Assembly: GCA_964195545.1 (NCBI GenBank)
Contig: CAXMQQ010000009.1
Coordinates: 1 to 61,506 of the forward strand
Source: an uncultured Acidimicrobiia bacterium
GTDB lineage: Bacteria > Actinomycetota > Acidimicrobiia > Spongiisociales > UBA5794
Length of the DNA: 61,506 bases
Direction: 5' to 3'
Position numbers and translations under genes: made by a program. Below the pieces are notes generated by a model. The model was not told where the DNA came from. It worked only from the letters and a program-made list of their open reading frames with translations, and ran no database searches. Below, one piece after another: positions 15,175 to 34,411 of this stretch. The stretch's first letter is position 1. The number at the start of each line of letters is the position of its first letter.

Positions 15175-16196
15175 CCCCGATCCTCGCTTCCTTTCCTTCA
15201 CCATCTGAGAACGTTCTCGAGATCGGTCCGCTGACGATCCACTACTACGGGATCATGATCGCCATCGGTGTGATCGTCGCCGTCCTCGTTGCCAAGCGCC
15301 GTTACGAGCGCTTCGGTGGTAGCAGCGAACTCGTCGAACGGGTCTCGATCTGGGCCGTCGCCATCGGCTTCCTTGGGGCACGGCTCGGATATGTGATCAC
15401 CCACACGGGAGACTTCATCGACCGTCCCTGGGGCGTTCTGTTCATCTGGGAGGGTGGGCTCGCTCTCTACGGCGGTCTCGCTCTCGGAGCGCTCGCAGCG
15501 GTCTTCCTCCTTCGCCGATCGAAGGGCGACATCTTCGCCTTCACCGATGCCGTCGCCGTGGGAATCCCTCTTGCCCAGGCCATCGGCCGATGGGGCAACT
15601 ACTTCAACCAAGAGCTCTTCGGTACACCGTCGGATCTGCCGTGGGCCGTGCAGATCGATCCGAACATGGCTGCGGTCGCCGGCTACCCGGGGTTCACGAC
15701 CTTCCACCCGACCTTCCTCTACGAGTCGCTCTGGAACATCTTTCTCACCGCTGGGATCATCCTCTGGCTCGAGCGCCGCAACAAACTGGCGAAGGGATCG
15801 TCTATCGCCCTCTATCTCATCATCTATGGGGCAGGTCGATTCCTCATGGAGTTGATGCGGACTGACACCACCTTCCGCCTTCTCGGCTTGAGTCGCAACG
15901 GCTGGATCTCCGCAGGTGCGGTCCTGTTCGGGATCGGATTGTTCTGGTGGATGCAACGCCGTCATGAGCCGCGAGTGCTCGTAGGCCCGTCCGTGTTCAT
16001 CGCTCCGGGTGAGCAGACGGTTGCGAAGCCGATCGAAGGTGATGAACCGTCCGGTGACGGATCCAAGGACGCCTCCGGGTTGTCGTTCGGTGACGGCATG
16101 GGTGGACATGCCTCGTCGTCGTCCCCATCAGATGGAAGCGGGGGCAACGAAGGGGTCGACGGAGAGGGTCAAGTCGCTCCACCGTCGTCTAGCTGA
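15171..16196 (+). CDS. lgt: Prolipoprotein diacylglyceryl transferase with a Gly/Ser/Asp-rich C-terminal tail
   Basis: IHYYGIMIAIGV, WEGGLALYGG and GRWGNYFNQELFG motifs are present. The start overlaps the upstream stop as ATGA. About 80 low-complexity C-terminal residues follow, and the 3' end overlaps the convergent MoeA-PBP gene by 8 nt. Confidence 0.9.
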   Translation: MTPILASFPSPSENVLEIGPLTIHYYGIMIAIGVIVAVLVAKRRYERFGGSSELVERVSIWAVAIGFLGARLGYVITHTGDFIDRPWGVLFIWEGGLALYGGLALGALAAVFLLRRSKGDIFAFTDAVAVGIPLAQAIGRWGNYFNQELFGTPSDLPWAVQIDPNMAAVAGYPGFTTFHPTFLYESLWNIFLTAGIILWLERRNKLAKGSSIALYLIIYGAGRFLMELMRTDTTFRLLGLSRNGWISAGAVLFGIGLFWWMQRRHEPRVLVGPSVFIAPGEQTVAKPIEGDEPSGDGSKDASGLSFGDGMGGHASSSSPSDGSGGNEGVDGEGQVAPPSSS

Positions 16197-18120: not shown

Positions 18121-19358
18121 GAATCGCAACCCCCGTGAAAGCAGTGCACCGTCACGTCGGTGCCTTCTGCATATCCTTCGAGGGCAGCGGGGATCACGAC
18201 GAATCCCGAGGCCTTGGAAACGGACGAGAGAACGGATGAACCCGAAATCGCCAGAGGTTCGACGAGACCCGCATCGATGACGACCCTGGCGTAGTCGGTT
18301 CGTCCGATCTGCGAAACGATTCTGCGAGCAAGCGTGCGTCTGACGGCCAGATAGGGCCAGTTGGGGGACCGGCCGCCGAGCAGTCGAATGACCGGACCGG
18401 CAAAGAAGTCGTAGGCAGCGAGACAGGAGACCGGATTGCCGGGGAGGATGATGACCCGGACCCCGTTGATTGTGCCGATCCCGGTTGGTGCCGACGGTCG
18501 CATCGTGATGCCGTGAATGGACAGGGAGCCCAGTTTGCCGACGAGGATGGGAACTCGATCCTCGGATCCGACCGATGCCGCCCCGGCCGTGACGATGACA
18601 TCGGCGCCGGGGCGAGCGAGAGCTTCTTCCATGACGCCCTCGTCATCAGGGAGGCGGGCTAGCTCAGCGATGCCTCCGTCTCGTTCGACGAGCGCCGCCA
18701 GCATCGGGGAATTGGAGTCGACGATCTTCGTGCCCTTCGGTGATGCGCCGGGCGGTAGGAGTTCGTCACCTGAGACGATGATCCGGACGGTGGGTCGGCC
18801 GACGACCTCGATCGGGTCATAGCCGATGGAGGAGAGAAGTCCGACATCTTGGGGGAGGAGGGTCCTTCCGGCGTTGAGGATCTGGTCGCCGGCCGCAACG
18901 TCCTCGCCGACCCGCCCGACATTCCTGCCGACCGGTACCGGCGCCGTGGCCTCGATCTGATCTCCTGAGCCGCGTGTGTCCTCGACCATCAGAACGGCAT
19001 CGGCGCCGTCCGGTATGGGTGCGCCGGTCACGATCGTCACACATTGCCCGTGCCTGACATGGGCATCGGGCACGGTGCCCGGCATCGACCTGCCCACGAC
19101 CTCGAGCGGGATGGGGTTGTAGGAGGTAGCTCCGTAGGTGTCCTCAGCGCACACGGCGTATCCGTCCATCATCGAGCGTCGAAAGGCCGGAACGTTCACA
19201 GCACTTACAACGTCGAGAGCGAGCACCCTGCCGGTCGCAGCCATGACAGCCACCGGATCCGACGGGAGCGGTGAGACGCCGTCCATGGCAGCCTCCAGGG
19301 CTTCCTTGACCGTAGATCGATCGCGAAAGCCGCGCATGCGGATGTCAGGGTTCGTCAT
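18117..19358 (-). CDS. moeA: Molybdopterin molybdotransferase MoeA
   Basis: 413 aa with FRRSMMDGYAV, the SGDEL motif (IIVSGDELLPPG) and AGAASVGSEDRVP, as in MoeA/gephyrin E-domain proteins. Confidence 0.85.
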   Translation of the reverse strand: MTNPDIRMRGFRDRSTVKEALEAAMDGVSPLPSDPVAVMAATGRVLALDVVSAVNVPAFRRSMMDGYAVCAEDTYGATSYNPIPLEVVGRSMPGTVPDAHVRHGQCVTIVTGAPIPDGADAVLMVEDTRGSGDQIEATAPVPVGRNVGRVGEDVAAGDQILNAGRTLLPQDVGLLSSIGYDPIEVVGRPTVRIIVSGDELLPPGASPKGTKIVDSNSPMLAALVERDGGIAELARLPDDEGVMEEALARPGADVIVTAGAASVGSEDRVPILVGKLGSLSIHGITMRPSAPTGIGTINGVRVIILPGNPVSCLAAYDFFAGPVIRLLGGRSPNWPYLAVRRTLARRIVSQIGRTDYARVVIDAGLVEPLAISGSSVLSSVSKASGFVVIPAALEGYAEGTDVTVHCFHGGCDS

Positions 19359-19390
19359 GGGAAAGCGATGCTAACGAAGTAGCAGGACGC

Positions 19391-19429
19391 AAGTAGCAGG
19401 ACACAAGACGGGCTTCGTTCCTGCTACTT
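19391..19429 (-). terminator. Hairpin between the AOR stop and the moeA start (terminator or attenuator)
   Basis: AAGTAGCAGGA ... TCCTGCTACTT forms an 11-bp perfect stem with a 17-nt loop. It is built from the 12-mer AAGTAGCAGGAC, which is also tandemly duplicated at 19377 and 19391. Confidence 0.45.
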
Positions 19430-19434
19430 GCTAC

Positions 19435-21393
19435 TCAGACACCCAGCTTGTCTGCCACCCAGCCGAGATCGAGTTCTTCAAGCGTCTCTCTGGGCGGGTT
19501 GCCGGTCTCCGGATCCCACCCTGCCAATCGGTAGTAGGTGTCAATGGCTTCGGCGATCGTCTCCCGATCCATCGTGGCACCGGCGCTCGGCCCATCCTGC
19601 AAGGGATCGTCATAGAGACGCTTCGGGAGCGTGTCCTGGTCGCGGGTGAGGCCCTCCCGAGCGTTGAATGCTCGCAGCAAGTTGATACGCCGGCGGCCGT
19701 ACGTGAGGAGGTCGTCGACCGTCGTCTCCATGCCGGTGACGGCCGTCACCACCGCTGCGAGGTCATCCATGCCGAGCAATTCCCAGCCCGGTCCGAAGAC
19801 GAACTGGCAGACGTTGGCGGTGTCCATCGCGGAGTAGGCGTACTGGGTCGTGAGGGCGTAGCGCACCTTCTCCTCGTTGAGAGAGTCGGCCGGCTGAGGG
19901 TTGGTCAAGCCGATGTCGGCCATGCGCTTCCCATATTTCTCCGGCCAGCTTGCAAGCGTCTTGGGCGTGTACATCCCGTCGTGCTCGCTGGATTGGTGAT
20001 CCGCCCCGAACGGATTCACTGCGTAGATGACGCCCAGCGTCGGCTTGACCTGAGGCATGTGCGCCGGAAGCTCGGCGCCCTTCACGGCGATGGAGAGGTC
20101 TTCTGCCCCGTTGCCGATTGTGGCGGCGGCCACAGCTGATCCCTCGGCAAGGATGTCACCAAAGCCGTCACGATGGAGCGTCTTCTCGAGCATGGCGATC
20201 ATCGCCTCGGCGTCGCCCCACTTCAGTTCAATGCCACCGGTGTCCTCAACGGTGATCAGGCCCTGCTCGAAACAATCAATCGCGAACGCCATCGTGGCAC
20301 CCGCAGCGATCGTGTCGACCCCGTATTGATTGCAGAGTTGATTCGCGTATGCGATCGCATGGAGATCGTCGATGCCGCAGTCGGATCCGAACATGGCCGC
20401 CGTCTCGTACTCGGGTCCTCCCGATTCAGGGTTGAGCACCTTGTCCATCCATTCGTCCTTGACGACTCTCTTGCATCGGACTGCACACGAATAGCAGGTG
20501 TCACGACCCTGCTTCAGCTTGCTGACTTCGTCGGTTCCGCGAAGGAGTTCGTCGAAGAGTCGCTCGCCGCCGATCTTCCTCGCAGCCTCGAACCCGAAGG
20601 ATCCGCTCTGGTAGTTCCGTGTCGGCAGACCTCCGACCGCACTCTGGCTTTCGAGAATGCCGATCGTGCCGTACTTGGCGAGCTCCCACACATCCTCATC
20701 GCCTCGAACGAGCGGTACCGCTCGCTGAACGATTGACCTCAGTGCCTCCGGGTCGGCCATCGGAAGCTTCTTCTTGCCTCCCCGAACGGCGATCGCCTTG
20801 AGCATCTTGCTCCCCATGACAGCCCCCATGCCGGTCCGTCCATGGGCGCGGGTTGCCATTGACATGATGGCGGCGAAGCGGACCTTCTTCTCACCCGCCG
20901 GTCCGACCTGGAGGACCTCGATGCGGTTGTCGTCGAGTTCGGTCTTGAGCGCCTGCTCGACTTCCAGTGTCGTCTCTCCCCACAGATGCGATGCATCACG
21001 CAGTTCGGCTTCCCCCTGGTTGATCCAGAGATACACCGGCTTTGGTGAGATGCCGCGAACCACGATTCCGTCGAACCCGGCGAACTTGAGTTCTGCCGGC
21101 CAAAACCCGCCGGCCTGGCTGTCGCCCGCACCCCCGGTGATGGGTGACTTGGCGACGACCGTGCATCGGCTCTGGCCGGCGATTGGTGCCCCGGTCGGTC
21201 CGGCAAGCATGAATGCCAAGGTGTTCTCTGGTCCGTACGGATCCACGCCGGCCGGCGTGTTCTTGAGGAGGTAGTAGAGGCCGAGCGCACTGCCACCCAG
21301 GTAGGTGCGGTATAGCTCGTCCGGCGGTTCCTCGATGTCGAGGGTTCCGGTGGTCAGATCGACATGAAGGATCTTCCCTGCAAAACCGAACAT
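19435..21393 (-). CDS. aor: Aldehyde:ferredoxin oxidoreductase (tungsten-pterin AOR family)
   Basis: 652 aa starting MFGFAGKILHVDLTTGTLDIEEPPDELYRTYLGGSALGLYYL, an AOR N-terminal domain. The CYSCAVRC motif (CxxCxxxC) matches the [4Fe-4S] ligands of AOR-family enzymes. Confidence 0.9.
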   Translation of the reverse strand: MFGFAGKILHVDLTTGTLDIEEPPDELYRTYLGGSALGLYYLLKNTPAGVDPYGPENTLAFMLAGPTGAPIAGQSRCTVVAKSPITGGAGDSQAGGFWPAELKFAGFDGIVVRGISPKPVYLWINQGEAELRDASHLWGETTLEVEQALKTELDDNRIEVLQVGPAGEKKVRFAAIMSMATRAHGRTGMGAVMGSKMLKAIAVRGGKKKLPMADPEALRSIVQRAVPLVRGDEDVWELAKYGTIGILESQSAVGGLPTRNYQSGSFGFEAARKIGGERLFDELLRGTDEVSKLKQGRDTCYSCAVRCKRVVKDEWMDKVLNPESGGPEYETAAMFGSDCGIDDLHAIAYANQLCNQYGVDTIAAGATMAFAIDCFEQGLITVEDTGGIELKWGDAEAMIAMLEKTLHRDGFGDILAEGSAVAAATIGNGAEDLSIAVKGAELPAHMPQVKPTLGVIYAVNPFGADHQSSEHDGMYTPKTLASWPEKYGKRMADIGLTNPQPADSLNEEKVRYALTTQYAYSAMDTANVCQFVFGPGWELLGMDDLAAVVTAVTGMETTVDDLLTYGRRRINLLRAFNAREGLTRDQDTLPKRLYDDPLQDGPSAGATMDRETIAEAIDTYYRLAGWDPETGNPPRETLEELDLGWVADKLGV

Positions 21394-22742: not shown

Positions 22743-23543
22743 CTAGTCGGTGGCCGGGGGGAGTGGCTCCACGACGAAGCGGGTACCCCGTACTTCGACG
22801 ATTCTCACGACGGCGCCTTTCGGGATCTCGATGTCGGCGTCAACGGTGGCGCGCCACTCCTCCGTTCCCATCTTGACCATGCCGCTCGTATCGAAGTGAC
22901 CAACCGGCCGGAGGACGATCGCGTTCCGGCCGACGTACCGATCTGCCCCGGCCTGGGCGGAAACGTCGGACTCCTGTTCCTGCTTGGCGAACCGTTGAAG
23001 CACGGCCAGGAAGATGACCGAGATCACAACGAATGTGACGAGCTGGATCGGCACCGAGACTCCCATGAAGGCGAGGATCGCAGCGGCGACTGCGCCCACG
23101 GCGAAGGGGAGGAGGAAGAACCCTACGGTGAGGAGCTCTCCGATCGAGAGGATCACCGCTGCGGCGATCCAGATCCATCTCCATTGTTCAGCGTCCACAT
23201 CTGCTCCCTTCGGTGCGAGGATCGCTACGGCGGCAAATGCGATGCCGAGCAATCCGATCGTGAGCCAGATCCAGAGTGCGCTGGATCTGGTCTGAATGTA
23301 TTCGCGTCGATCGACTCGTGCCGAGCCGCGATAGGCAGCGGCCCAAGCTTCGGCGAACACCGCGAGGTCGGTGCCGATGACGCTACCAACAGACTGCCCG
23401 GCCGCGGTTGCCTCGCTGAGGTGATCGGTCAACTCGTTGCGCATCTCTCCGACTGTGTTGTCGGGAACGCCGGTATCTCTCCAGTAGCGGGCGCATTCGT
23501 TGACGGTTCTGTCAACGTTCCGGTCAGCCACGTTCACCTCCAT
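22743..23543 (-). CDS. NfeD-family membrane protein with an N-terminal HAAS/DUF1700-like helical domain
   Basis: The C-terminus is an NfeD OB domain (GRNAIVLRPV...GMVKMGTEEWRATV...GAVVRIVEVRGTRFVVEPL) preceded by 3-4 TM segments. The N-terminal ~75 aa (EMRNELTDHLSEATAAGQSVGSVIGTDLAVFAEAWAAAY) resemble the PadR-associated DUF1700/HAAS module. The start overlaps the PadR stop (ATG 23543, or GTG 23531). Confidence 0.75.
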   Translation of the reverse strand: MEVNVADRNVDRTVNECARYWRDTGVPDNTVGEMRNELTDHLSEATAAGQSVGSVIGTDLAVFAEAWAAAYRGSARVDRREYIQTRSSALWIWLTIGLLGIAFAAVAILAPKGADVDAEQWRWIWIAAAVILSIGELLTVGFFLLPFAVGAVAAAILAFMGVSVPIQLVTFVVISVIFLAVLQRFAKQEQESDVSAQAGADRYVGRNAIVLRPVGHFDTSGMVKMGTEEWRATVDADIEIPKGAVVRIVEVRGTRFVVEPLPPATD

Positions 23544-23859
23544 CCACTATCGCTGAGACTCCTGCGCTCAGATCATGCCACTCTTCCGTCCAGTCCTTGA
23601 GGCGGGTCTTCCCGGGCTTGACGATCCGGTAGTACTTCCGGGGTGGACCGCTCCCGTCTGCCTCGACGAAGTACCCCTCGACCAGTCCAGCTTTCTGGAG
23701 CCGCGAGAGCGTCGGATAGATACTGCCATCGCTCACGAGCTTGACGCCTCGTTTGTTCAGTTTCGCCGCCATCTCGTATCCATAGCTCGGTTCTTCGTCG
23801 ATGAGCGAGAGCAGGCACATGTCGAGTACTCCCTTGAGGAGTTGCGAGCTGTGATCCAC
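23524..23859 (-). CDS. PadR family transcriptional regulator
   Basis: 111 aa containing LLKGVLDMCLLSLIDEEPSYGYEMAAKL...SIYPTLSRLQKAGLVEGY...RKYYRIVKPGK, a canonical PadR winged helix. Confidence 0.9.
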   Translation of the reverse strand: MDHSSQLLKGVLDMCLLSLIDEEPSYGYEMAAKLNKRGVKLVSDGSIYPTLSRLQKAGLVEGYFVEADGSGPPRKYYRIVKPGKTRLKDWTEEWHDLSAGVSAIVDGGERG

Positions 23860-23910
23860 TGTCCACTCCTTCCAGCCCTTGTGATGTCAGATATCGTGGT
23901 TCATAGAATA

Positions 23911-23950
23911 CCTTGTATCAAGGAATATCATGGATTGGCTAAGTTGTCAA
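23911..23950 (-). promoter_or_regulatory. Candidate padR promoter (TTGACA-17-TATTCC) overlapped by a 13-bp palindrome (putative PadR operator)
   Basis: The minus strand reads cTTGACAacttagccaatccatgaTATTCCTTGATACAAGGtattc. The palindrome CCTTG-ATA-CAAGG (plus 23911-23923) overlaps the -10 region. The spacer is AT-rich. Confidence 0.4.
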
Positions 23951-24026
23951 GAAGATTGTCAGCTACGAGCTGTGAGCTACGAGCAAATAGCGACAGTCTC
24001 TCCGAACACCGACAACCGACGACCGA

Positions 24027-24953
24027 CTATGGACAGGCTGGTCGCCAGTCTGTCTCACCGAAGACTTGTGACAGCAGTTCATACAGGAGTGGGTCGTAGG
24101 CCCGGAGTTCGTCTCTGGTGTCGACGTGGTTGTGGATCTGGTCCTCCTCGTCGATCTCTTCGTTGTTGGCATCAAAGAACGATTGAACACCCTCGGCCCA
24201 GTACATGTCCGAGTTCACCTCGGCGACGGTGTTCCGCCACAGGTCGGCCGCTATGGCACGTCCGTAGGCAGCTTCGATGGCATGATCCAAGCCATGGTCG
24301 ACGAGGGCGATCCCGAACCGTCGGATCGTCCATCCGAAGTCGCGGACGAACATGTCTTCCCCCTCGAAGCGGTCGGATTCGAGGCACAGGAGATTCTCTT
24401 CGGATCCGGCGACAACCGGGATCTCTTCGGTGCCGGGGAAGGAGCGGCCGAGTCGGTGCCAATCGGTTCCCGGATGGATCTTGTAGACGTCCTCGAATTC
24501 GGGCAGATCCGTGATGCGTTGATCTTGCCCGATGACGGCGATACCGTCGATCGAGACGGCAACGGACCCGGCGAGGTCGGGTCGCTCGGCAAGCAGACCG
24601 GCCATCCGGGCGGCGGCAGCTTCGAGCGCTCGGTCGTCGATGGACTCCGCCGCAAAGATGGCGATACCGTGCTGTTCGCACGTCTTGCGGTAGAAATCAT
24701 CGTCGGTGCCGATGCCTTCGATCACGCACGTTGGCTGGGGAAGCGTCGTTGTAGTGGTCGGCGTGGAGGTCGTCGTCGTGGAGGTCGTCGTGGAGGGGAG
24801 CGCGGTCGTGGTCGGGGAGAGCGTGGAACTCGTGGTTGCCAGCGGGGCGAACGTTGTGGCTGTCGCGGTTTCGACCTCTTCGGACGCCGTCTGGCATCCG
24901 GCAGCAAGGAACGCTACTGCGCACAGCAACACGGTCGATCGGAGGGCTCGCAT
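24027..24953 (-). CDS. Secreted lipoprotein of unknown function with a Thr/Ser-rich linker
   Basis: The signal ends at a lipobox (AVAFLAAGC). A ~55-aa Thr/Ser/Pro linker follows, then a ~230-aa globular domain I cannot assign. Confidence 0.6.
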   Translation of the reverse strand: MRALRSTVLLCAVAFLAAGCQTASEEVETATATTFAPLATTSSTLSPTTTALPSTTTSTTTTSTPTTTTTLPQPTCVIEGIGTDDDFYRKTCEQHGIAIFAAESIDDRALEAAAARMAGLLAERPDLAGSVAVSIDGIAVIGQDQRITDLPEFEDVYKIHPGTDWHRLGRSFPGTEEIPVVAGSEENLLCLESDRFEGEDMFVRDFGWTIRRFGIALVDHGLDHAIEAAYGRAIAADLWRNTVAEVNSDMYWAEGVQSFFDANNEEIDEEDQIHNHVDTRDELRAYDPLLYELLSQVFGETDWRPACP

Positions 24954-25090
24954 AGAGCGAAGATGCTACGGGTCCCGCGGGCCAAGGACGGTATTCGCCC
25001 CAAATGCGCGTGTCATGGCCGCGAGCGCGCTAACTTGTCCACAGGGCATAACGGGCGGTTGTACATGCAACCGAACGAAATGGTAGGAAG

Positions 25091-26371
25091 ATGCGGTCAA
25101 GACACGACCGGATCCTCGATCTCGCCGAGCGCAGGCTGAGCCTCGGAGTTGAGCTGGGTATTATCCAGCGGAGAATCGAAGACGAAGAGCTCGATGGTGC
25201 ACTCATCACCATCGATGGTCGACGGATGGTCAATTTCAGTTCATGCTCGTACCTTGCTCTCGATCGCGACGACCGACTCAAGAAAGCCGCGATCGACGCT
25301 ACTGAGCGGTATGGCACCAGCTATTCGTCATCGCCGACGTATACGGCGCTTCCTCTCTATGACACCCTCGAGGAACGGCTCCGCTTGATCACGGGCGGGG
25401 CGGTAGCGATCGCTCAGACCACGACACTCGCTCATATCGCGGCTCTGCCGATCATGGTGTCTCCCGAGGATCTCGTTCTCATCGATGCTCAGACACACGA
25501 CTCCGTGCACCTTGCGACACAGAATCTGAAGGGTGCAGGTGTCCGTGTCGAAACGGTGCCACACAGTGATATTCCTGCACTCGAGCGACGATTGACCGAG
25601 TTGGCCGGTGATTTCAACCATGTCTGGTATCTCGCGGACGGCGTGTACTCGATGCACGGCGATCTTGCCCCGGTGAAACAGGTCGCTGCCTTGCAGGATC
25701 GGTTCGACAATCTCTACACCTACTACGACGACGCGCATGGTTTCGGATGGCAAGGGGAGAGAGGCAGGGGGTATGTGCTGTCAGAGACTCCTCTCAACGA
25801 ACGCATGGTCATGGCGGCGGGATTCGCCAAATCGTTTGGATCTGTCGGTGCCGTCTTGGCGTTCGGCGATCCGGCGATTGCACGCCGGGTGCGACTGGTT
25901 GGCGGTCCGTTGACGTTCTCCGGTCCGATACCACCGCCCGACCTTGGGGCGGCAACGGAGTCCGCAGCGTTCCATCTCTCTCCGGCATATGGCGATCGGC
26001 AGGCTCGGCTTCTTGAGGACATTGAATGGGTCCGGTCGGAATTCGTAAGACGCCAACTGCCTGTGGCATCGCTGGCGACAAGTCCGATCTGGTTCATCCG
26101 AGTCGGCTCCCCCGAACTTGTCGCCGAAATGATCCTGCGCCTCATGGGTGAGGGGTACTATCTCAATGCAGCCGCGTTCCCGGCTGTTGCGCTGGGCGAC
26201 GGAGGCGTCAGATTCGCTCAGACCCTCCACAACACACGCGGGCAACTAACCGGACTCCTGGACGCTATTGAGCATCATCTACCGCAGGTGACTTCCGATC
26301 CCGACATGGTCATTGACCTGAGATATGAGACCGATGTTCGTGTAACCGGCGCCGAGTCACACCGGGTCTGA
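25091..26371 (+). CDS. Alpha-oxoamine synthase family PLP enzyme (BioF/Kbl/SPT/CqsA superfamily)
   Basis: 426 aa with NFSSCSYLALDRDDRL, DDAHGFG and the PLP-lysine context AAGFAKSFGSVGAV. No biotin, threonine-dehydrogenase or sphingolipid genes lie nearby. Confidence 0.8.
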   Translation: MRSRHDRILDLAERRLSLGVELGIIQRRIEDEELDGALITIDGRRMVNFSSCSYLALDRDDRLKKAAIDATERYGTSYSSSPTYTALPLYDTLEERLRLITGGAVAIAQTTTLAHIAALPIMVSPEDLVLIDAQTHDSVHLATQNLKGAGVRVETVPHSDIPALERRLTELAGDFNHVWYLADGVYSMHGDLAPVKQVAALQDRFDNLYTYYDDAHGFGWQGERGRGYVLSETPLNERMVMAAGFAKSFGSVGAVLAFGDPAIARRVRLVGGPLTFSGPIPPPDLGAATESAAFHLSPAYGDRQARLLEDIEWVRSEFVRRQLPVASLATSPIWFIRVGSPELVAEMILRLMGEGYYLNAAAFPAVALGDGGVRFAQTLHNTRGQLTGLLDAIEHHLPQVTSDPDMVIDLRYETDVRVTGAESHRV

Positions 26372-26410
26372 TCGCTACACCTCGGTTCGATCCCTGCCGA
26401 TAGTTCAAAC

Positions 26411-28129
26411 ATGCAGGTCTCTGCACCTATCGGATCGACGCGGGATCGAGTCAGTGTTCCGTGGTACGTCAGTGCCACGTTCGCTCTGCTCGCCGTTGTG
26501 GCTGGAATCGTCGCGTTCGGGAGTCCGGACATGGCTCACAACGTTGCGCCGATCGGGATACTGATCGGCAACGTCGTTGCCGGGATCGTGTTCATACGTC
26601 GATCTATCCGTCTGGAGCGCGCTGAGCGGCGAGCTTGGAGGCTGGTCGGCATTGGCCTGATCATCGCAGCCTCCGGGATCGTTGTGGTCGCGATGCAGTT
26701 GGCCATCGTCGGTGATGCACCCACATTCGGCTTCACCGACCTGTTCTTCATCGGCGGGTACGCACTCATCCTCGTCGGTTTCGCATCGCTTCCGCACACC
26801 GCCGGCGATTCGTTGCAGCGTACGCGGGTGGCGTTCGACGGAATCATCGGAGCGATCTCTGTCGGTGCTCTCCTGTGGGTGTTCGCTCTCGACCGAATCG
26901 TTGTGGGCCTCGAAGATGCATCTCTCGGTGATCGGGTCTTCGGCTCGATGTATCCGCTGATCGATCTCGCAGTCGTTGTCATCATCATGATCGTGACGGT
27001 GCGTCGATCCAGCCATCGATTCGATCTACGGATGCTGCTGTTCACCGGTGCTGTCCTCCTCCAGTCCATCGCCGACGTGAGCTATTTGGTCGAGGGCGTC
27101 GGCCAGAGTTTCACCGAGGCGAAACCACTGTTCGTGGTCTACTTGGCGGCTGCTGCCCTGTTCCTTGCAACAGCGCTTGTTGTTGACCGGGTGCCGCCCC
27201 CGAGAGAGTATGCGGACCGGCGGCTCCCGCTCTGGTCCGTCCTCGCACCGTACTCCGCGGCGGCGATCATGGTCGGTGTACTGGTGTTCCGGCTGTGGGA
27301 TACGGACCTCGACCAGGGCGATCGCGTCCTTCTCGTCGCGACCCTGATCGTTGCAGTGCTTGTAATCGGTCGCCAAGGCATCGCTATTCGAGAGAATCGA
27401 AAGATCGTTGAGCAGCAACGATCCGATCTTGTGTCTTCGATCTCCCACGAGCTCAGGACACCGCTCACTGCCATGGTTGGCTTCGTCGCCGTGCTCCGGG
27501 AGGATCCGAAGCTCCACCTAGAAGAACGAGTCGAGATGATCGACGTGGTGGCGGAACAGGGATCCCACCTCGAGAGGATCGTTGAGGACCTCTTGGTCCT
27601 GGCTCATGACGAACCGAGCCGGATCGGACTCACGACCGCAGAACATCCCATCGGTCCGATCGTCGAGAGCGCGATTCGGACCGCTGGATACGAACCGCCG
27701 TATGTAACGACTGAGGTCGAACCCGGACTCACGGCAGTCGTCGATGGCGGGCGTATCGTTCAGATCCTCGTCAACCTCCTCTCCAATGCGCAACGATACG
27801 GCGGAGATAGGTGCCTGATTGTCGCAAAGGAGGAGAGCACCCGGTTGGTCATTGAGGTTCACGACTCAGGGCCCGGCGTCCCGAAGAAGTACGAACTGAC
27901 GATCTGGGAGCGGTTCGAACGCGGTCCGAACCGCTACAACGCAAGCATCCCTGGATCAGGCATCGGCCTGGCGATGGTCCGCACAATCGCAGCGGCTCAC
28001 GGCGGCCGGGTCGGCTACCGCGAGTCCGAGCGGCTCGGTGGAGCATGCTTCTCTATCGATCTCCCGGGCATCGTCGGCAAGATCGAGCCAAGCGTGATGG
28101 GGTCGTCCACGACAATGGCGATTGGCTAG
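26411..28129 (+). CDS. Sensor histidine kinase with a ~330-aa polytopic membrane input domain
   Basis: I count about ten hydrophobic segments with short loops by eye. An H-box follows (SISHELRTPLTAMVGFVAVL), then an HATPase domain (NLLSNAQRYGG...DSGPGVP...GSGIGLAMVR). There is no receiver domain and no response regulator nearby. Confidence 0.85.
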   Translation: MQVSAPIGSTRDRVSVPWYVSATFALLAVVAGIVAFGSPDMAHNVAPIGILIGNVVAGIVFIRRSIRLERAERRAWRLVGIGLIIAASGIVVVAMQLAIVGDAPTFGFTDLFFIGGYALILVGFASLPHTAGDSLQRTRVAFDGIIGAISVGALLWVFALDRIVVGLEDASLGDRVFGSMYPLIDLAVVVIIMIVTVRRSSHRFDLRMLLFTGAVLLQSIADVSYLVEGVGQSFTEAKPLFVVYLAAAALFLATALVVDRVPPPREYADRRLPLWSVLAPYSAAAIMVGVLVFRLWDTDLDQGDRVLLVATLIVAVLVIGRQGIAIRENRKIVEQQRSDLVSSISHELRTPLTAMVGFVAVLREDPKLHLEERVEMIDVVAEQGSHLERIVEDLLVLAHDEPSRIGLTTAEHPIGPIVESAIRTAGYEPPYVTTEVEPGLTAVVDGGRIVQILVNLLSNAQRYGGDRCLIVAKEESTRLVIEVHDSGPGVPKKYELTIWERFERGPNRYNASIPGSGIGLAMVRTIAAAHGGRVGYRESERLGGACFSIDLPGIVGKIEPSVMGSSTTMAIG

Positions 28130-28187
28130 ACGGCTCCACCATCGGTAGTCGGTATCCGGTGAAGACTGCACTTGTACTGCTTGCTGC

Positions 28188-28211
28188 TCATAGCTCATAG
28201 CTCATAGCTCG
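28188..28211 (+). repeat. Tandem heptamer array (CTCATAG)3
   Basis: Read directly in the convergent spacer between the kinase stop (28129) and the clpB stop (28218). The word GCTCATAGCTCG recurs at 33164-33175. Confidence 0.95.
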
Positions 28212-28217
28212 CCCCTG

Positions 28218-30797
28218 TCACCCCTCAATTCTGTGGAAACCCAGGGCATCACCGTCCGCCACCACCTCGATCGTGTCTCCGTCGCGGAAGGTTCCGTCCA
28301 GGATCGCCAACGCGAGAGGATCGCCGATCGCCGTCTGGAGAAGACGCTTGAGGGGGCGTGCCCCGTACACGGCGTCGTAGCCGTGCTCCGTCAACCAGTC
28401 AGCGGCTCCGTCCGTGAGCTCGAGGCCAATACGTCGATCGGCGAGACGCGCCGCGAGTCCGGCGAACTGGATGGTCGCGATCTTCCTGAGATCATCCTTC
28501 GTGAGCCGATGGAACACGATCACGTCGTCGATCCGGTTCAGGAACTCGGGACGGAAGTGGGCCTTCACGGATTCCATCACGCGGGCTTCGATGAGATCCT
28601 CCGGGAGCTCTGGATCGATGAACTCAGACCCTAGATTCGATGTCATGATCAGCACCGTGTTCGAGAAATCGACGGTGCGGCCTCGTCCGTCCGTCAATCT
28701 TCCGTCGTCGAGCAATTGGAGGAGGACGTTGAACACGTCCGGGTGGGCCTTCTCGACCTCGTCGAGGAGGATCACGGAGTAGGGTCGACGGCGTACCGCT
28801 TCGGTCAACTGGCCACCTTCGTCGTACCCCACGTAGCCTGGGGGTGCACCGATCAGACGGCTCACCGAGTGCTTCTCCATGTATTCCGACATGTCGATTC
28901 GCACCATGGCTCGCTCGTCGTCGAACAGGAAGCCCGCGAGGGCACGGGCGAGTTCGGTCTTGCCGACACCCGTAGGTCCGAGGAAGAGGAACGAGCCGAT
29001 CGGGCGATTCGGATCTGAGAGTCCGGCACGGGAGCGCCGGATGGCGTTCGCTACAGACTCAACTGCGTCGTTCTGACCGACGACCCGTTCGTGGAGATGC
29101 TCTTCGAGGCGGACGAGTTTGTGAACCTCACCCTCCATCAGCTTCGCCACCGGAATCCCGGTCCAACGACTCACCACTTCGGCAACGTCTTCTTCGTCCA
29201 CTTCCTCTTTCAGCATCTTGGTGGTCGACTGAAGCCCCTCGAGCTCCGTCTGGCGATCCGCGAGGTCGCTCTCGAAGGACGGAAGGGATCCGTAACGGAG
29301 TTCGGCAGCCTGTTGCAGGTCACCGTCCCGCTCCGCTCGATCAGCAACCGCACGGGTCTCTTCGATGTCGTGCTTCACAGAACGAATGCCGTCGATCGCA
29401 TCCTTCTCCGACTGCCAGTGAGCCGAGAGCTCGTCGAGGTCTTCAGCCAGATCAGCGAGCTCCTGCTCGATCGTTGCGAGTCGCTCCATCGAAGCTGTAT
29501 CGGTCTCTTTGGCGAGCGCTTGGCGTTCGATCTCGAGCTGCCTGCGTCGTCGGGTCAGTTCGTCGATCTCCTCCGGCATGGAGTCGATCTCGATTCGGAG
29601 ATGCGAGGCAGATTCGTCGACGAGGTCGATCGCCTTGTCGGGGAGGAGGCGACCGGTGATGTACCTATCAGAGAGCACAGCAGCCGCGACCAGAGACGCG
29701 TCGGTGATACGAACGCCGTGATGGACTTCGTAGCGTTCTTTGAGGCCACGGAGTATCCCGATGGTCTCCTCCACCGTAGGTGGTTCAACCAGGATGGGCT
29801 GGAATCGACGTTCGAGTGCCGGGTCCTTCTCGATGTACTTCCGGAACTCGTCGAGGGTTGTCGCTCCGATCATCCGTAGTTCGCCGCGGGCGAGCATCGG
29901 CTTCAGCATGTTGGAGGCGTCCATCGAGCCTTCGGAGGCGCCGGCTCCCACGATGGTGTGCATCTCGTCGATGAACGTGACGACGCGTCCTTCGGCAGCC
30001 TCGATTTCGTTCAGAACCGCCTGAAGTCGCTCCTCGAATTCGCCCCGGTACTTGGCGCCGGCAACGAGTGTTCCCATGTCGAGGCCGACGATCCGCTTGT
30101 TCTTCAGGCCTTCGGGGACGTCACCTTCGATGATCCGTTGGGCTAGACCTTCAACGATGGCGGTCTTGCCAACACCGGCTTCACCGATGAGCACAGGGTT
30201 GTTCTTCGTCCGGCGTGACAGCACCTGGATCGTGCGGCGGATCTCCTCGTCTCGACCGATCACCGGATCGAGTTTGCCCTGCTTGGCGAGTTCGGTGAGG
30301 TCGCGCCCGTACTTCTCGAGCGGCGCGAACGTGTCCTCGGGGTTCTGCGATGTGATCCGCTGGCTGCCGCGAACCTCGGTGAGTGCTCCAAGGATCGCAT
30401 CCTTCGTGACACCTGCCCGGCGCAAGATGGCGCCGGTCGATCCGGCGGAAACGGAGAGAGCCAACAGCAGGTGCTCGACCGAGATGTAGTCATCCTTGAG
30501 AGCCCGGCGTTCGTTCTCGGCTCCCTCGAATACGGCAAGCGACTCCGGGGAGAAGGAGGCCTCGCTTCCACCGACGATGGTGGGGATCGCTGCGAGAGTC
30601 CGCTCAACCGGGCGGGTGATGTCCGTCGCGTGAATGTCGAGTTTCGCAAGGAGGGGGTAGATGAGTCCGTGGGTCTGGGCGAGGAGACCCGCGAGCAAGT
30701 GTTCGGGTTCCACATACGGTTGGGTACGCTGAGTCGCGAGGTCACGTGCGGAGAGGACGGCCTGTTGCGATTTCTGTGTGAAGGCGTTGAAGTCCAT
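28218..30797 (-). CDS. clpB: ATP-dependent chaperone/disaggregase ClpB
   Basis: 859 aa with a Clp N-domain, two AAA+ modules (Walker A GEAGVGKT and GPTGVGKT) and a long middle coiled-coil. Confidence 0.97.
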
Positions 30798-30869
30798 GAG
30801 GATCCGTTCTTCGTCGTTTGGAGTCTGTCAGTTGTTCAACACCAGAAATGATACACGTATGCCAGAAAA

Positions 30870-30890
30870 TTTGAGTCAATATATGTCAAG
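30870..30890. promoter_or_regulatory. HAIR-like inverted repeat (candidate HspR operator) upstream of clpB
   Basis: The minus strand reads CTTGACA-tatattg-ACTCAAA, against the HAIR consensus CTTGAGT-N7-ACTCAAG (11 of 14 matches). It lies 73-93 nt upstream of the clpB ATG in an unusually AT-rich spacer. Confidence 0.45.
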
Positions 30891-30911
30891 TTCAATACAG
30901 TGGGGTCTGTC

Positions 30912-31382
30912 ATGAGCTTCGTCGATCGAGGTGGCTGGTGGGTCGTTGCCCAACTCATCCTTTTTGGCCTGTATGCCCTTGCGATGCTCGGAACCGAGAG
31001 CATCACCGAAGGGATCGGCCTGGAGTTCGCCAGGGTCGTTGGCATCGCCATGGTGATCGTCGCCGTGGTCATCGGGGTCTGGTCGTTCGTCCTTCTCGGT
31101 CGGAATCTCACGATCTACCCGTATCCGGTTCATGAAGCCACGCTCACGGACCGTGGGCCGTATCGCCTGGTCCGGCACCCGATCTACCTGGCGGTCATCG
31201 TCGGTGGCGTCGGTCTGGGGCTTGCGTTGCTTAGCACGGCGGGCGTTCTCGTGGCGCTCGTGTTCATTCCCTTCTTCAGCGCGAAGACCGGATTCGAGGA
31301 GGACGGACTGGTCGAGCGCGTCCCCGGGTATCGCGAATACCGATCCACGATCCCATATCGGATCATCCCCTGGGTGATGTGA
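30912..31382 (+). CDS. Isoprenylcysteine carboxyl methyltransferase (ICMT)/phospholipid methyltransferase family membrane protein
   Basis: GPYRLVRHPIYLAVIVGGVG and EEDGLVERVPGYREYRSTIPYRIIP match the ICMT-family C-terminal motif. I prefer ATG 30912 to the track GTG 30900. Confidence 0.75.
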   Translation: MSFVDRGGWWVVAQLILFGLYALAMLGTESITEGIGLEFARVVGIAMVIVAVVIGVWSFVLLGRNLTIYPYPVHEATLTDRGPYRLVRHPIYLAVIVGGVGLGLALLSTAGVLVALVFIPFFSAKTGFEEDGLVERVPGYREYRSTIPYRIIPWVM

Positions 31383-31459
31383 GGCGCTCTCGTTCGGACC
31401 AATCGGAAATGGAAACGCGGGCTGCGGCGTTATCCAACGACCGAACAGGGAGTTCAATA

Positions 31460-31744
31460 GTGCCGAAAGCAGTATGGAACGGAGCCGTCCTCGCTGAGAG
31501 CGACGACATCGTGATGGTCGAGGGGAATCACTACTTCCCGCCATCGTCACTCAACAGGGAGTTCTTCGCTCCAAGTAACCAGAAGAGCCGGTGCCCGTGG
31601 AAGGGGTTGGCGGGGTACTACGACGTCACCGTGGGCGGCAGGACGAATCCCGGTGCCGCGTGGTTCTACGCCGAGCCGAAGGCGGGAGCGGAAGACATCA
31701 AGAACAGGGTCGCCTTCTGGCGAGGAGTTCGAGTCGAGGAGTAG
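31460..31744 (+). CDS. DUF427 domain protein
   Basis: AVWNGAVLAESDDIVMVEGNHYFPPSSL...CPWKGLAGYYDV...AWFYAEPK is the DUF427 pattern. GTG 31460 has GGGAG 9 nt upstream. The track start 31379 and ATG 31409 remain possible. Confidence 0.7.
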   Translation: MPKAVWNGAVLAESDDIVMVEGNHYFPPSSLNREFFAPSNQKSRCPWKGLAGYYDVTVGGRTNPGAAWFYAEPKAGAEDIKNRVAFWRGVRVEE

Positions 31745-31810
31745 GACCCTGCCGGCACCAGGCAGATTCGTCCGCAACGTTATCCTGGCGTTCCGCGACC
31801 ACGGAGCCCC

Positions 31811-32467
31811 ATGATTCCCATCCGCATCGTCGAGACCGAACGAGAGGGCTTTGACGAACCCGTCGTCGAACTCTGGATGGAGAACGAGTTCGTCGGGATG
31901 GTGTTCTGGGATGGCTCGGCGACGGTCGTCCAGGTCTACCCAGCCGGGGACGATGACGTTCACGACCTCGAATTGCGGGATCTCTTCCGTGCCCTCGAGA
32001 TGGCCGAGCGGATCGTCGATCCGTTGGCGTTCGATCAGGTGGAGGGACTCGTTCAGCTCGATGGAGGACGCGCTCAGGCGAAGCGGGAAGAGGTCGAGGA
32101 CGACTGGTCGGACGAGGATCCGTCAACGGTTGAGCTCCTTTCGGAGTTCGACCCGCTGGCCGCCTTCCGGTCAGAGGACGGTGAAGGATTCTTTCCGAAG
32201 GACGTCGCCGAGCGGTTCATCCGGCGTTGCGAGGAACTGCGACTCGCTGTGGTCGAGATGGAGGGCTTCGATCTCATCACGGGCGAACTGAAGGCTCGGC
32301 CCGGTCTCGAACTCGTGGTCCAGCCTCAGTCGATCATGTCGGCTGCCGAGTTCTGCTCGCACGCGAACGCCACAGCGCTCGACCACCTCACCGGGTGGCC
32401 CGTCCGAGACTCGTTCGTTGTTGCTTTCGTCGTCCAGCAGCAGAACGGCGAGACGATTGTGGCGTGA
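31811..32467 (+). CDS. Hypothetical acidic protein
   Basis: 218-aa ORF in the coding-like frame with no family recognised. The 7-bp hairpin ATCCAGC-ctc-GCTGGAT (32470-32486) follows the stop. Confidence 0.5.
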   Translation: MIPIRIVETEREGFDEPVVELWMENEFVGMVFWDGSATVVQVYPAGDDDVHDLELRDLFRALEMAERIVDPLAFDQVEGLVQLDGGRAQAKREEVEDDWSDEDPSTVELLSEFDPLAAFRSEDGEGFFPKDVAERFIRRCEELRLAVVEMEGFDLITGELKARPGLELVVQPQSIMSAAEFCSHANATALDHLTGWPVRDSFVVAFVVQQQNGETIVA

Positions 32468-32561
32468 GGATCCAGCCTCGCTGGATGCAGTCGGTACTCA
32501 ATGATCGGTTCTAGGCCAAGTAGCATTGCCGGAACGATCCGAATGAGGGAGATTCTCGTCG

Positions 32562-33071
32562 ATGTTTGACTACAAAGAATTGAAGGCCTACTGGTGGCTG
32601 TTCCTGGTCTCCGGACTCTTCAGTCTCTTCATCGGGGCTGCACTTGTGTTCTGGCCGGGCAAGACACTCACCGTGGTTGGTTGGCTCATTGGCCTCTGGA
32701 TGCTCTTCTTCGGCGTTCTCCGGGTCGTGATGGCTCTCTTCGGTGGCAAGGCAGACGGACGATGGATCGTCCTGGTCGTCGGCATCGTCGTGATGAAGAA
32801 CCCTGCCGAGACGATCGGGATCATCGCTCTCCTCGCAGCCATCTTCTGGATCATCAGTGGAATCATCGATGTGTTCCGTGCCTTTACGGACGGCGACATG
32901 CCGTCCCGAGGCTGGGTCATATTCGGCGGCATCGCGGCGATCGGGGCAGGTGCCGTCTTGCTGCTGTGGCCTGCAGCAACCGTCACTGTCCTCGCGATCA
33001 TCGCCGGGATCTTCTTCTTCATCGACGGTGTCATGCAGATCCTTGCCGGCTTCGAACTGAAGAAGGGCTGA
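32562..33071 (+). CDS. HdeD/DUF308 family membrane protein
   Basis: 169 aa with six hydrophobic segments and the repeated G..G...G...(L/F)WP pattern typical of DUF308. Confidence 0.75.
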   Translation: MFDYKELKAYWWLFLVSGLFSLFIGAALVFWPGKTLTVVGWLIGLWMLFFGVLRVVMALFGGKADGRWIVLVVGIVVMKNPAETIGIIALLAAIFWIISGIIDVFRAFTDGDMPSRGWVIFGGIAAIGAGAVLLLWPAATVTVLAIIAGIFFFIDGVMQILAGFELKKG

Positions 33072-33181
33072 TCCAGCGACGCTGAACGTAGTCCGTAGCC
33101 GGTAGTCGGGTTCCCCCGTCGCGGGGTGGGCGACGTGGAGCGTCAAGGACTGAGTGGGATCGTGCTCATAGCTCGGCGCCT

Positions 33182-34411
33182 CTACTCGGCTGGCTTGCCT
33201 TCTCCCGGCGGTCCGGACGCGGCTTCGCACCAATCGGCGTACCTGTTGGCACCCCAGGGGGCCGTGACACCGTGGAGGACCACGCTGAAGGCCACCGTGA
33301 CGATGATGGCACCGATAACGAGTTGGCTCTGCTCGAGGCCGGCTTCCTCGACGAGGACACCGGCGAAGATGATCGACGCGAGACCCCGCGGTCCGAACCA
33401 GCCGAGGTAGGTGAGCGTGGGTGCCTTGAGCCCTGTGCCGATCATCGAGATGGCAACCGGAATCATCCGCACGACGGTGAGGCTCAAAACGGCGTAGAAC
33501 ACCGTCGCCGTGGTAAAAGCGGCGAGATTCGGCGCCAGTAGGTACGCCCCAAAGATCAGGAACGATGTCATCGTGAGAACCGTCCCGAGGTCATTGCCGG
33601 TCTCTGCGAAGTGCTCCGAGGGTGTTTCGAGACGATTGACGATGCGGCCGAAGGTGATCCCGGCGAGGTAGGCCGCTATGAAGCCGCTGCCGCCGAGATG
33701 GTCGGCCACGATGTATGTTCCGAGTGCCACGATGATCCAGTCCATCCGGATCCACTCCGCTTCGATCCAGGATCGCTTCAACGCGAATTGAATGGCGTAG
33801 GCAGCGCCGATGCCCATGGCGAGCCCAACAAGCACGGCGATGCCGATGCCTTCGACGAAGAACCTCCACAAGGGGTCTCCCCCGTCGGCCAGGCTGAGAG
33901 CCATGAGGAAGAGCAGGATTGGGAGAGCGATGCCGTCGTTGAGTCCCGACTCGATGCCGAGTGCTTCGCGCAGTCTGGTTGGGACCCTCTGGTTTGAGAG
34001 CACGGCCGACCCGAGAGCTGCGTCGGTCGGGGCAAGGATCGTCGCGATGATGGCTGCTCCGATGACTCCGGTCGAAGGGAAGATGAGGTAGGCGGCGACT
34101 GTTCCGAAGACAATCGTCAGAGGCATTCCGATCGTGAGCAGTCTTGTTGGGAGGTCCATGTCGACTTCCCACGATCGGATTTGGATCTTCGAAGCGTCGG
34201 TGAACAGCAAGAGCGCCAGGGTGAGTTCGAGCACAAGAACGACCGGAGAATCGATCGTGGTGATCGGTGGTATGACCCCTGCTGCGTAGCCGATCAAGCC
34301 GAGCGTGGCGAAGAACAGGGGGCCGGAGATCGGTGATGACACAAGCCGTTTGGAGACAAGGCCGTAGGCGAGGAGTGTCGCGCCGATGTAGATGATGGCT
34401 CCGATATCCAC
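33182..34411 (-). CDS. Na+/H+ (cation:proton) antiporter, CPA1/NhaP type
   Basis: Polytopic protein with GLNDGIALPILLFL and LGGSGFIAAYLAGI motifs. The real start is probably GTG 34411 (GGAGAG upstream, 29 nt after the upstream stop). The track start 34567 would overlap the upstream gene by 127 nt. Confidence 0.8.
   Translation of the reverse strand: MDIGAIIYIGATLLAYGLVSKRLVSSPISGPLFFATLGLIGYAAGVIPPITTIDSPVVLVLELTLALLLFTDASKIQIRSWEVDMDLPTRLLTIGMPLTIVFGTVAAYLIFPSTGVIGAAIIATILAPTDAALGSAVLSNQRVPTRLREALGIESGLNDGIALPILLFLMALSLADGGDPLWRFFVEGIGIAVLVGLAMGIGAAYAIQFALKRSWIEAEWIRMDWIIVALGTYIVADHLGGSGFIAAYLAGITFGRIVNRLETPSEHFAETGNDLGTVLTMTSFLIFGAYLLAPNLAAFTTATVFYAVLSLTVVRMIPVAISMIGTGLKAPTLTYLGWFGPRGLASIIFAGVLVEEAGLEQSQLVIGAIIVTVAFSVVLHGVTAPWGANRYADWCEAASGPPGEGKPAE

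Follow-up and report, generated by a model that had tools for sequence, protein, structure and literature searches.

A candidate small-molecule synthase and membrane-receptor gene pair with exchangeable types in uncultured Acidimicrobiia

The synthase gene and the kinase gene

The stretch of DNA analysed here (61,506 nucleotides (nt); contig CAXMQQ010000009.1), referred to as the window, comes from an uncultured Acidimicrobiia bacterium and has a G+C content of 62%. It carries a gene for an alpha-oxoamine synthase (AOS), an enzyme dependent on pyridoxal phosphate (PLP), and directly downstream a gene for a polytopic membrane histidine kinase. Comparison with related loci revealed a near-obligate adjacency of the two genes, as well as a mosaic co-inheritance of the enzyme and the membrane domain of the kinase. 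On this basis we favor a reading in which the pair would make and sense a small molecule. The open reading frames (ORFs) and other features of the locus are listed below, with protein lengths in amino acids (aa).

25091-26371, plus strand: AOS gene, 426 aa, encoding an acyl-CoA:amino-acid C-acyltransferase, the proposed signal synthase
26372-26410, plus strand: intergenic spacer between the AOS and kinase genes, 39 nt
26411-28129, plus strand: histidine kinase gene, 572 aa, directly downstream of the AOS gene
26411-27415, plus strand: ten-helix membrane input domain of the kinase (aa 1-335), the proposed ligand-binding part
27416-28129, plus strand: kinase core with HisKA (aa 336-399) and HATPase_c (aa 446-552), without a receiver domain
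25089-27422, plus strand: putative exchangeable specificity cassette (AOS gene, spacer and sensor domain), in which the window diverges from locus L009, its closest relative
24954-25090, plus strand: possible leader or promoter region, from a divergent lipoprotein gene to the AOS gene

The ORFs agree with a first-pass annotation of this DNA, which had given the sizes of the two products as 426 and 572 aa, their common strand, the 39-nt gap and the AOS motifs. The AOS contains the stretches YYDDAHGFGWQ and AAGFAKSFGSVG. The two genes are likely co-transcribed, because the spacer at 26372-26410 contains neither a terminator-like nor a sigma-70-like motif in a scan of 24800-28400. An Rfam scan of 23500-28500 yielded a sub-threshold small-RNA match alone, on the opposite strand inside the AOS gene.

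The only Pfam match of the AOS is PF00155, the class I/II aminotransferase fold, and its class was judged by the score rankings of hidden Markov models (HMMs) and Protein Data Bank (PDB) entries. Among the NCBIfam models, PRK07505 ('hypothetical protein') scored best with 231 bits against a cut-off of 342, followed by bioF (TIGR00858; 169 bits, cut-off 426), a Kbl-related model (149 bits), serine palmitoyltransferase (SPT; 124 bits, cut-off 640), Kbl (122 bits) and ALAS (86 bits). The CqsA/LqsA model (NF005526/PRK07179) came last of the named AOS classes, with 56.8 bits where its cut-off is 428. The PDB sequence search gave a similar picture, with Alb29 (8xha) as the best match at 132 bits, followed by SPT (104 bits), ThAOS (90 bits) and BioF/Kbl (about 75 bits), and with the CqsA structure 2wk8 as the weakest at 27.7 bits. 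A CqsA orthologue was therefore rejected. The AOS and Alb29 are about one-third identical by eye over approximately 340 aa and have the motifs SSxSYLxLD and GRGYVL in common. Alb29 is the AOS of the albogrisin pathway in Streptomyces albogriseolus (PDB 8xha, 8i7u) and uses L-glutamate and acyl-CoAs (PMC11906848). Thus, by its scores, the window AOS appears to be a member of a PRK07505/Alb29-like subfamily outside every characterized AOS class. It differs from Alb29 in its surroundings, as Alb29 works in a natural-product pathway whereas the window AOS has no biosynthetic cluster around it, and it falls under the PRK07505 cut-off. Residues H136, S187, D213, D214, H216, K247 and R374 are invariant among 19 homologues of 51-86% identity. 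We take them to be the catalytic residues by analogy with BioF and SPT, with K247 presumably the Schiff-base lysine. Since these residues are invariant, the enzyme is very probably active.

The nearest AOS relatives without a kinase gene, of a Methylobacter type (40-44% identity), lie in a mixed context of Hsp20, M48 peptidase, PEBP and TonB-dependent receptor genes. Their neighborhoods are heterogeneous and gave no functional clue. Literature searches found no description of an Acidimicrobiia AOS-kinase system or of PRK07505.

The kinase possesses the H-box SHELRTPL with the phospho-acceptor His346, in the HisKA domain assigned by Pfam together with HATPase_c. It ends at aa 572 with these two domains only. 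The first-pass annotation had described an input region of about ten hydrophobic helices with short loops, and both the hydropathy profile and an AlphaFold2 model confirm it. The hydropathy segments for transmembrane helices (TM) 1-5 span residues 17-37, 45-63, 76-99, 108-127 and 141-161, and those for TM6-10 span residues 177-197, 207-227, 238-259, 273-294 and 305-322. The model, built with 32 homologues, also contains ten helices (pLDDT 81.5, pTM 0.79). Arg-rich loops are located on alternate sides at 63-76, 128-140, 197-206 and 260-272, and the outer loops are very short. This alternation implies a topology with both the N- and C-termini inside. Conserved polar residues lie within the membrane on TM4-TM7, namely D110, Y117, D143, Y181, D185, Q218 and D222, and acidic residues clustered inside the membrane in this way would fit a ligand that bears an ammonium group. 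The most variable parts of the domain are the N-terminal tail, TM1-3 and the outer loops, whereas the cytoplasmic loops are the most conserved.

Residues 1-335 match no Pfam or NCBIfam model, and relaxed E-values yielded only a noise-level hit to Ceramidase (E=2.3). The PDB sequence search gave no match to the domain. The best E-value of Foldseek against the PDB was 0.036, and TM-scores reached about 0.5 only in short rhodopsin or MFS overlaps, which we do not regard as meaningful. The search for a link to the CqsS/LqsS input domains covered Pfam, NCBIfam and PDB sequences, and gave no hit to aa 1-335. A word-indexed search with aa 1-330 returned only 103 proteins, which with a single exception are kinases of about 572 aa from the same kind of metagenome-assembled genome (MAG), and an exhaustive phmmer search with the sensor module found 728 representatives. 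In the distant relatives that were sampled, the same module of about 330 aa precedes GGDEF-EAL, GGDEF-HD-GYP, PAS/GAF or hybrid-kinase outputs. Since the module is fused to such varied signaling outputs, it is a sensor, and neither a transporter nor an enzyme. It resembles the MASE-type modules, which are also polytopic, N-terminal and without large loops, and which stand before HisKA/HATPase, GGDEF-EAL, HD-GYP or PAS/GAF domains. It differs from them in that it matches neither a Pfam or NCBIfam model nor a solved fold. The module is a general MASE-like membrane sensor that has no Pfam name.

Conserved adjacency and mosaic inheritance

In total 181 loci were collected, from two scans over species-representative genomes and one over metagenomes, and duplicates were removed before counting. 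When the AOS is at least 45% identical to that of the window, a kinase with this sensor domain is encoded next to it in 50 of 51 loci, the exception being locus L117. The fraction drops to 6/37 for an AOS of 39-45% identity and to 0/67 for one of 30-39% identity. All carriers of the pair at 45% or above are uncultured Acidimicrobiia. The AOS-kinase pair is the sole unit common to loci with at least eight otherwise different neighborhoods, whose flanks include MMPL/response-regulator, gyrA and ClpB/SPFH types and several unique contexts. The adjacency, which the first-pass annotation had proposed to check in related genomes, is far beyond chance.

One subclade, with the extended locus at 5649-12634 in L013 and at 5624-11683 in L018, carries additional genes next to the pair. 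An MMPL gene, encoding an RND-type lipid exporter, lies divergently upstream in L013, L014 and L018, and a convergent gene for a 128-aa single-domain receiver protein follows the kinase gene in L013, L014, L018 and L084. The two products are a candidate exporter and a candidate phospho-acceptor, respectively. The kinase had been called an orphan, which holds for the window but not for this subclade, where the response regulator is encoded beside it. Between the kinase and response-regulator genes of L013 there is also a 374-aa ORF (11104-12228) without a Pfam match, made of near-identical repeats with 98% self-matches at offsets of about 440 nt.

Comparison of near-conspecific genomes revealed that the AOS and the sensor domain do not follow their flanks. 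The closest flanks to those of the window are in L009, with 95% aa identity of ClpB and about 92% nt identity. Three pairs of loci gave the following aa identities.

Window/L009: ClpB 95%, AOS 57%, sensor 51%, kinase core 89%
L022/L011: ClpB 97%, AOS 57%, sensor 51%, kinase core 77%
L024/L027: ClpB 96%, AOS 54%, sensor 43%, kinase core 73%

The nt identity between the window and L009, computed in 150-nt bins, is 74-93% up to 25088, 35-67% across 25089-27422, and 79-96% over 27423-33090 save for two intergenic-gap bins (0.67 and 0.46). The left breakpoint falls at the AOS start codon, where the identity drops from 0.91 to 0.65. The right one lies at kinase residue ~338, near the start of HisKA (336), where the identity returns to 0.90. 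A comparable block differs in L022/L011 and L024/L027. In L022/L011 the flanks are 93-99% identical in nt and the cassette 38-66%, and in all three pairs the identity falls at or near the AOS start codon.

The reverse relation is also found. Compared with the window, L022 shows 86% identity in the AOS and 84% in the sensor, yet only 69% in the kinase core. Cassette type B, found in L009, L010, L011 and L027, has AOS sequences 80-84% identical to one another on backgrounds with ClpB identities of 84-89%, and types A and B both occur at 95-97% ClpB identity. For example, L009 and L011 carry the same cassette type (AOS 84%, sensor 77%) in more distant backgrounds (ClpB 89%). Over 13 syntenic loci, ClpB identity correlates with that of the kinase core (0.75), but hardly with that of the AOS (0.18) or the sensor (0.12), whereas the AOS correlates with the sensor (0.90) and much less with the kinase core (0.31). 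Partial Mantel tests over 25 loci gave r=0.80 (p=0.0002) for AOS and sensor given the core, and r=0.01 (p=0.44) for AOS and core given the sensor. Differences in evolutionary rate cannot yield such rank reversals among the AOS, sensor, core and ClpB, which argues for recombination, and the AOS and sensor domain thus appear able to recombine between near-identical strains as one block. Assembly chimeras are an unlikely source of the mosaic pattern, because it recurs in contigs of different studies and the cassettes are flanked on both sides within each contig.

The leader at 24954-25090 behaves differently from the cassette. Its nt identity is 91% to both L009 and L022, above the adjoining coding bins, and an alignment of 14 loci indicated that it is conserved whatever the cassette type. 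It contains an AGGAAG Shine-Dalgarno-like site, and a small palindrome or predicted hairpin, GGTTG-TACATG-CAACC, at 25057-25072, about 20 nt 5' of the AOS start codon. RNAalifold on the 14 loci found one covarying pair in this hairpin, C-G to U-A in four sequences (GGCTG/CAGCC).

A proposed synthase-receptor module and its alternatives

We consider it somewhat more likely than not that the pair forms one module, in which a small-molecule synthase is matched to its own membrane receptor and the specificity types can be exchanged. The first-pass annotation had put forward a signal synthase-receptor pair like CqsA/CqsS. The homology with CqsA/CqsS implied by this proposal was not supported, given 57 bits against a cut-off of 428 and ten helices instead of six. 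The synthase-receptor idea gains a fair degree of support from the near-obligate adjacency and the mosaic co-inheritance. As the synthase and sensor are both kept jointly and replaced jointly, the simplest explanation is that the product of the synthase would be the ligand of the kinase.

We propose the following course of events for the module. The AOS would join an amino acid and an acyl-thioester to yield a lipophilic alpha-aminoketone, or the aminoketone might become a derivative, such as a hydroxyketone or a pyrazine, spontaneously or through housekeeping enzymes. The AOS-derived compound would partition into the membrane and be bound within the ten-helix input domain of the co-encoded kinase. 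Ligand binding would alter the autophosphorylation of His346, which in turn might lead to phosphorylation of a response regulator encoded elsewhere. MMPL could provide an export route in the one subclade that carries it. The specificity types of the module would comprise at least five AOS/sensor classes among the syntenic genomes, and homologous recombination would transfer the AOS-sensor block among closely related Acidimicrobiia, with the kinase core and promoter region remaining with the host lineage.

CqsS is a hybrid kinase with a C-terminal receiver domain, whereas the window kinase has none. The likeness to CqsA/CqsS and LqsA/LqsS consists in an AOS-fold PLP enzyme encoded beside a polytopic, loop-poor membrane histidine kinase, and in the fact that one enzyme can suffice for a lipophilic signal sensed within the membrane. 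However, the window AOS belongs to another subfamily than CqsA, and its partner has ten predicted helices whereas the Vibrio harveyi quorum-sensing receptor has a 6TM design (PMC4821796). Homologues of cqsA/cqsS have been reported from Legionellaceae, Vibrionaceae, Burkholderiaceae, Chlorobiaceae and Oxalobacteraceae, with Actinomycetota not among them (PMC5289986), whereas the present pair belongs to Actinomycetota and shows a prominent polymorphism of cassette types.

This polymorphism is shared with the comQXPA and agrBDCA systems. The agr hypervariable region is analogous to the comQXP pattern. In both, the hypervariable block consists of the signal-making gene or genes and the N-terminal membrane sensor, the kinase core and flanks are conserved, and allele classes are common to several lineages. 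The cassette found here has the same features. Its hypervariable block is a synthase gene plus a sensor domain between a conserved core and conserved flanks, and its allele classes recur in different lineages and are mixed among genomes that are near-conspecific. About ten TM helices are likewise predicted for ComP. Its N-terminal domain of ~10 TM is variable and its cytoplasmic domain conserved (PMC4008528), and Bacillus comQ pherotype clusters show only 65-70% nt identity with gyrA ~100% identical (PMC4408185). The signals of these systems are ribosomal peptides, whereas a synthase that depends on PLP and forms a C-C bond would be expected to give a small lipid-like signal. Moreover, most loci here have no cognate response regulator in the operon, which is present only in L013, L014, L018 and L084. 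The module would be a functional counterpart of CqsA/CqsS with a pherotype polymorphism of the agr/comQXP kind, built from another AOS subfamily and an apparently unrelated sensor.

Several points weigh against a synthase-receptor module. The AOS falls outside the CqsA class, and Alb29, the closest relative with a solved structure, works in natural-product synthesis. Nothing in the window links a response regulator, an exporter or a regulon to the pair. The right breakpoint is sharp only in window/L009, being graded in L022/L011 and L024/L027 (core 73-77% aa), and the correlations and Mantel tests are pairwise-distance statistics that are not phylogenetically independent. In L133 (5323-6687), on a complete Acidimicrobiia MAG chromosome (OZ244213.1), the kinase gene is convergent with the AOS gene, and in L117 there is no such kinase within 4 kb downstream of the AOS. 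Every carrier is an uncultured MAG, and the support for the module comes from sequence comparison. In addition, co-inheritance would also be expected if the AOS protein contacts the sensor, or if its product is a membrane lipid that is monitored privately.

The latter alternative, a private lipid or envelope homeostasis, is in our view unlikely. The AOS would make a membrane amino-lipid precursor, e.g. a sphingoid-like base or an aminoketone lipid, and the membrane domain of the kinase would monitor the lipid level or membrane state and feed back on expression, without any cell-to-cell signaling. Such a role accounts for the enzyme-sensor co-variation equally well, and suits a sensor that is wholly membrane-embedded, an AOS whose second-best solved relatives are SPTs (104 bits) and the MMPL lipid-transporter gene divergently upstream in one subclade. 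However, the SPT models remain far under their cut-offs (124 versus 640), and no context conserves a reductase, an N-acyltransferase, an acyl carrier protein or other lipid-biosynthesis genes with the pair. The replacement of the cassette at 95-97% ClpB identity and the allele classes across lineages are typical of social or discrimination loci, not of a housekeeping lipid pathway. Direct contact between the proteins is a distinctly improbable alternative, in which the AOS, acting as a trigger enzyme or an accessory protein, would dock on the sensor from the cytoplasmic side, its substrate flux controlling the kinase or the kinase controlling the AOS. The cassette would then reflect an interface and no ligand. 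The tight adjacency and co-variation of the pair would follow from such docking, and the cytoplasmic loops are indeed the most conserved parts of the sensor. Nevertheless, an exchangeable interface would predict variable cytoplasmic loops, whereas the variability resides in the N-terminal tail, TM1-3 and the outer loops, and neither a membrane anchor nor an additional domain is present in the AOS.

It is highly improbable, and largely refuted, that the AOS is simply the BioF or Kbl of the genome with the kinase as a chance downstream neighbor. The bioF model ranks second in NCBIfam (169 bits) and the JGI annotation names the homologues '7-keto-8-aminopelargonate synthetase-like', but the score is far under the cut-off of 426 and the identity to Escherichia coli BioF and Kbl is only 25-26%. 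In tblastn searches with these two proteins the AOS was their only match in the window. As the first-pass annotation had noted, biotin and threonine dehydrogenase genes are lacking nearby, and tblastn with the E. coli proteins found no BioA, BioB, BioC, BioD or Tdh homologue in the window. The AOS is 57% identical in aa between strains with 95-97% ClpB identity, unlike a housekeeping gene, and a chance neighbor would hardly recur in 50 of 51 loci of differing contexts.

A wider claim, namely that Acidimicrobiia use an unrecognized communication system in which an AOS-made aminoketone and its 10-TM receptor are swapped between strains as pherotypes, is put forward only tentatively, as a possibility we would not bet on. 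What is known of quorum sensing in Actinomycetota concerns mostly gamma-butyrolactones and related furans, and our literature searches found nothing comparable for quorum sensing in Acidimicrobiia. If the claim is true, this would be, to our knowledge, the first non-peptide system with a cassette polymorphism in the style of agr/comQXP, as the searches gave no counter-example. Acidimicrobiia are common in soils, sediments and marine water and almost uncultured, and the two-gene module would offer a direct handle on kin discrimination in such bacteria. It would also provide a natural series of matching enzymes and receptors with which to study how a lipid-like ligand is read by a kinase domain embedded in the membrane, assign a class of ligands to the unnamed 10-TM module, which c-di-GMP enzymes carry as well, and widen the chemistry expected of AOS enzymes beyond the biotin, haem and sphingolipid pathways. 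The signal from the comparisons is exceptionally clean, and the chemistry to which it points can be tested in a lineage that is ubiquitous yet uncultured.

Flanking genes and other AOS loci

The genes within about 9 kb of the pair encode two MoeA proteins, an aldehyde:ferredoxin oxidoreductase, SPFH and NfeD proteins, a lipoprotein, ClpB, a PEMT-like methyltransferase, DUF427 and a Na+/H+ exchanger. The MoeA, oxidoreductase, SPFH and NfeD genes lie upstream on the minus strand, and the lipoprotein gene is divergent from the AOS gene. Downstream, clpB on the minus strand is followed by plus-strand genes. The individual features are as follows.

16189-21393, minus strand: cluster of an aldehyde:ferredoxin oxidoreductase gene (tungsten/molybdopterin enzyme family) and two MoeA genes
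24027-24953, minus strand: predicted lipoprotein gene, 308 aa, divergent from the AOS gene
30900-31382, plus strand: PEMT/ICMT-like methyltransferase gene
31379-31744, plus strand: DUF427 gene
31811-32467, plus strand: conserved gene without an assigned function, 218 aa
32562-33071, plus strand: HdeD/DUF308 gene, 4.4 kb downstream of the pair

The minus-strand cluster is syntenic in related MAGs, and one of its MoeA proteins is fused to a PBP-like domain. The lipoprotein, which belongs to no Pfam family, carries a signal peptide (lipobox LAAGC) and a linker rich in Thr, Ser and Pro. Between L024 and L027 it has diverged somewhat further than the more remote flanks, possibly from hitch-hiking with the cassette. 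The product of 31811-32467 is acidic and without a Pfam match, and is found in all syntenic Acidimicrobiia loci at 58-95% aa identity (mostly >80%). Three minus-strand ORFs in 30876-33233 (224, 138 and 240 aa) were rejected as antisense shadows of the plus-strand genes; their composition is implausibly rich in Asp, Glu, Arg, His and Pro, and they have no Pfam match.

The lipoprotein, SPFH/NfeD, ClpB and HdeD genes were rejected as members of the module. The first three are absent where the flanks differ. HdeD occurs only where the entire synteny on the ClpB side is shared and is absent from every locus with different flanks, so its proximity was rightly taken as probably coincidental in the first-pass annotation. 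That annotation also saw no response regulator or receiver domain in the window, and the searches made here concur. An HMM of eight regulators plus CheY found no receiver domain in the six-frame translation of all 61.5 kb (hmmsearch --max), and tblastn with the L013-type regulator found no response regulator in the window. The first-pass annotation saw no Hpt domain either, for which no dedicated search was made here.

Other loci connect AOS enzymes of this kind with regulatory genes. In Bacteroidota-type genomes of low G+C content, the gene after a PRK07505-type AOS (32-42% identical to that of the window) lies on the opposite strand and encodes a single-domain response regulator. The next one encodes a histidine kinase with a hydrophobic N-terminal part of ~200 aa that has no large loop. 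This arrangement is present in L055 (5992-9356), L056, L057, L082, L128, L135, L136, L141, L155, L166 and L177, and looks like a second, independent module of AOS plus membrane kinase. Because these loci independently pair the enzymes with a response regulator and a polytopic kinase, and others carry the fusion described next, AOS enzymes of the PRK07505 type may represent signal synthases as a general class.

A further architecture is a fusion of about 800 aa between an AOS domain and a FemAB-like domain in L058 (5989-8397). Its neighbors are RteC on one side and, on the other, a DUF7793 protein, a PAS/AraC regulator and proteins with MauE domains. The same layout is found in L061-L100 and in the cultured Flavobacterium johnsoniae (L171), Aequorivita antarctica (L158, L164) and Algibacter lectus (L161). 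This fusion, which recurs across many Flavobacteriia, is another link of the AOS subfamily to regulators.

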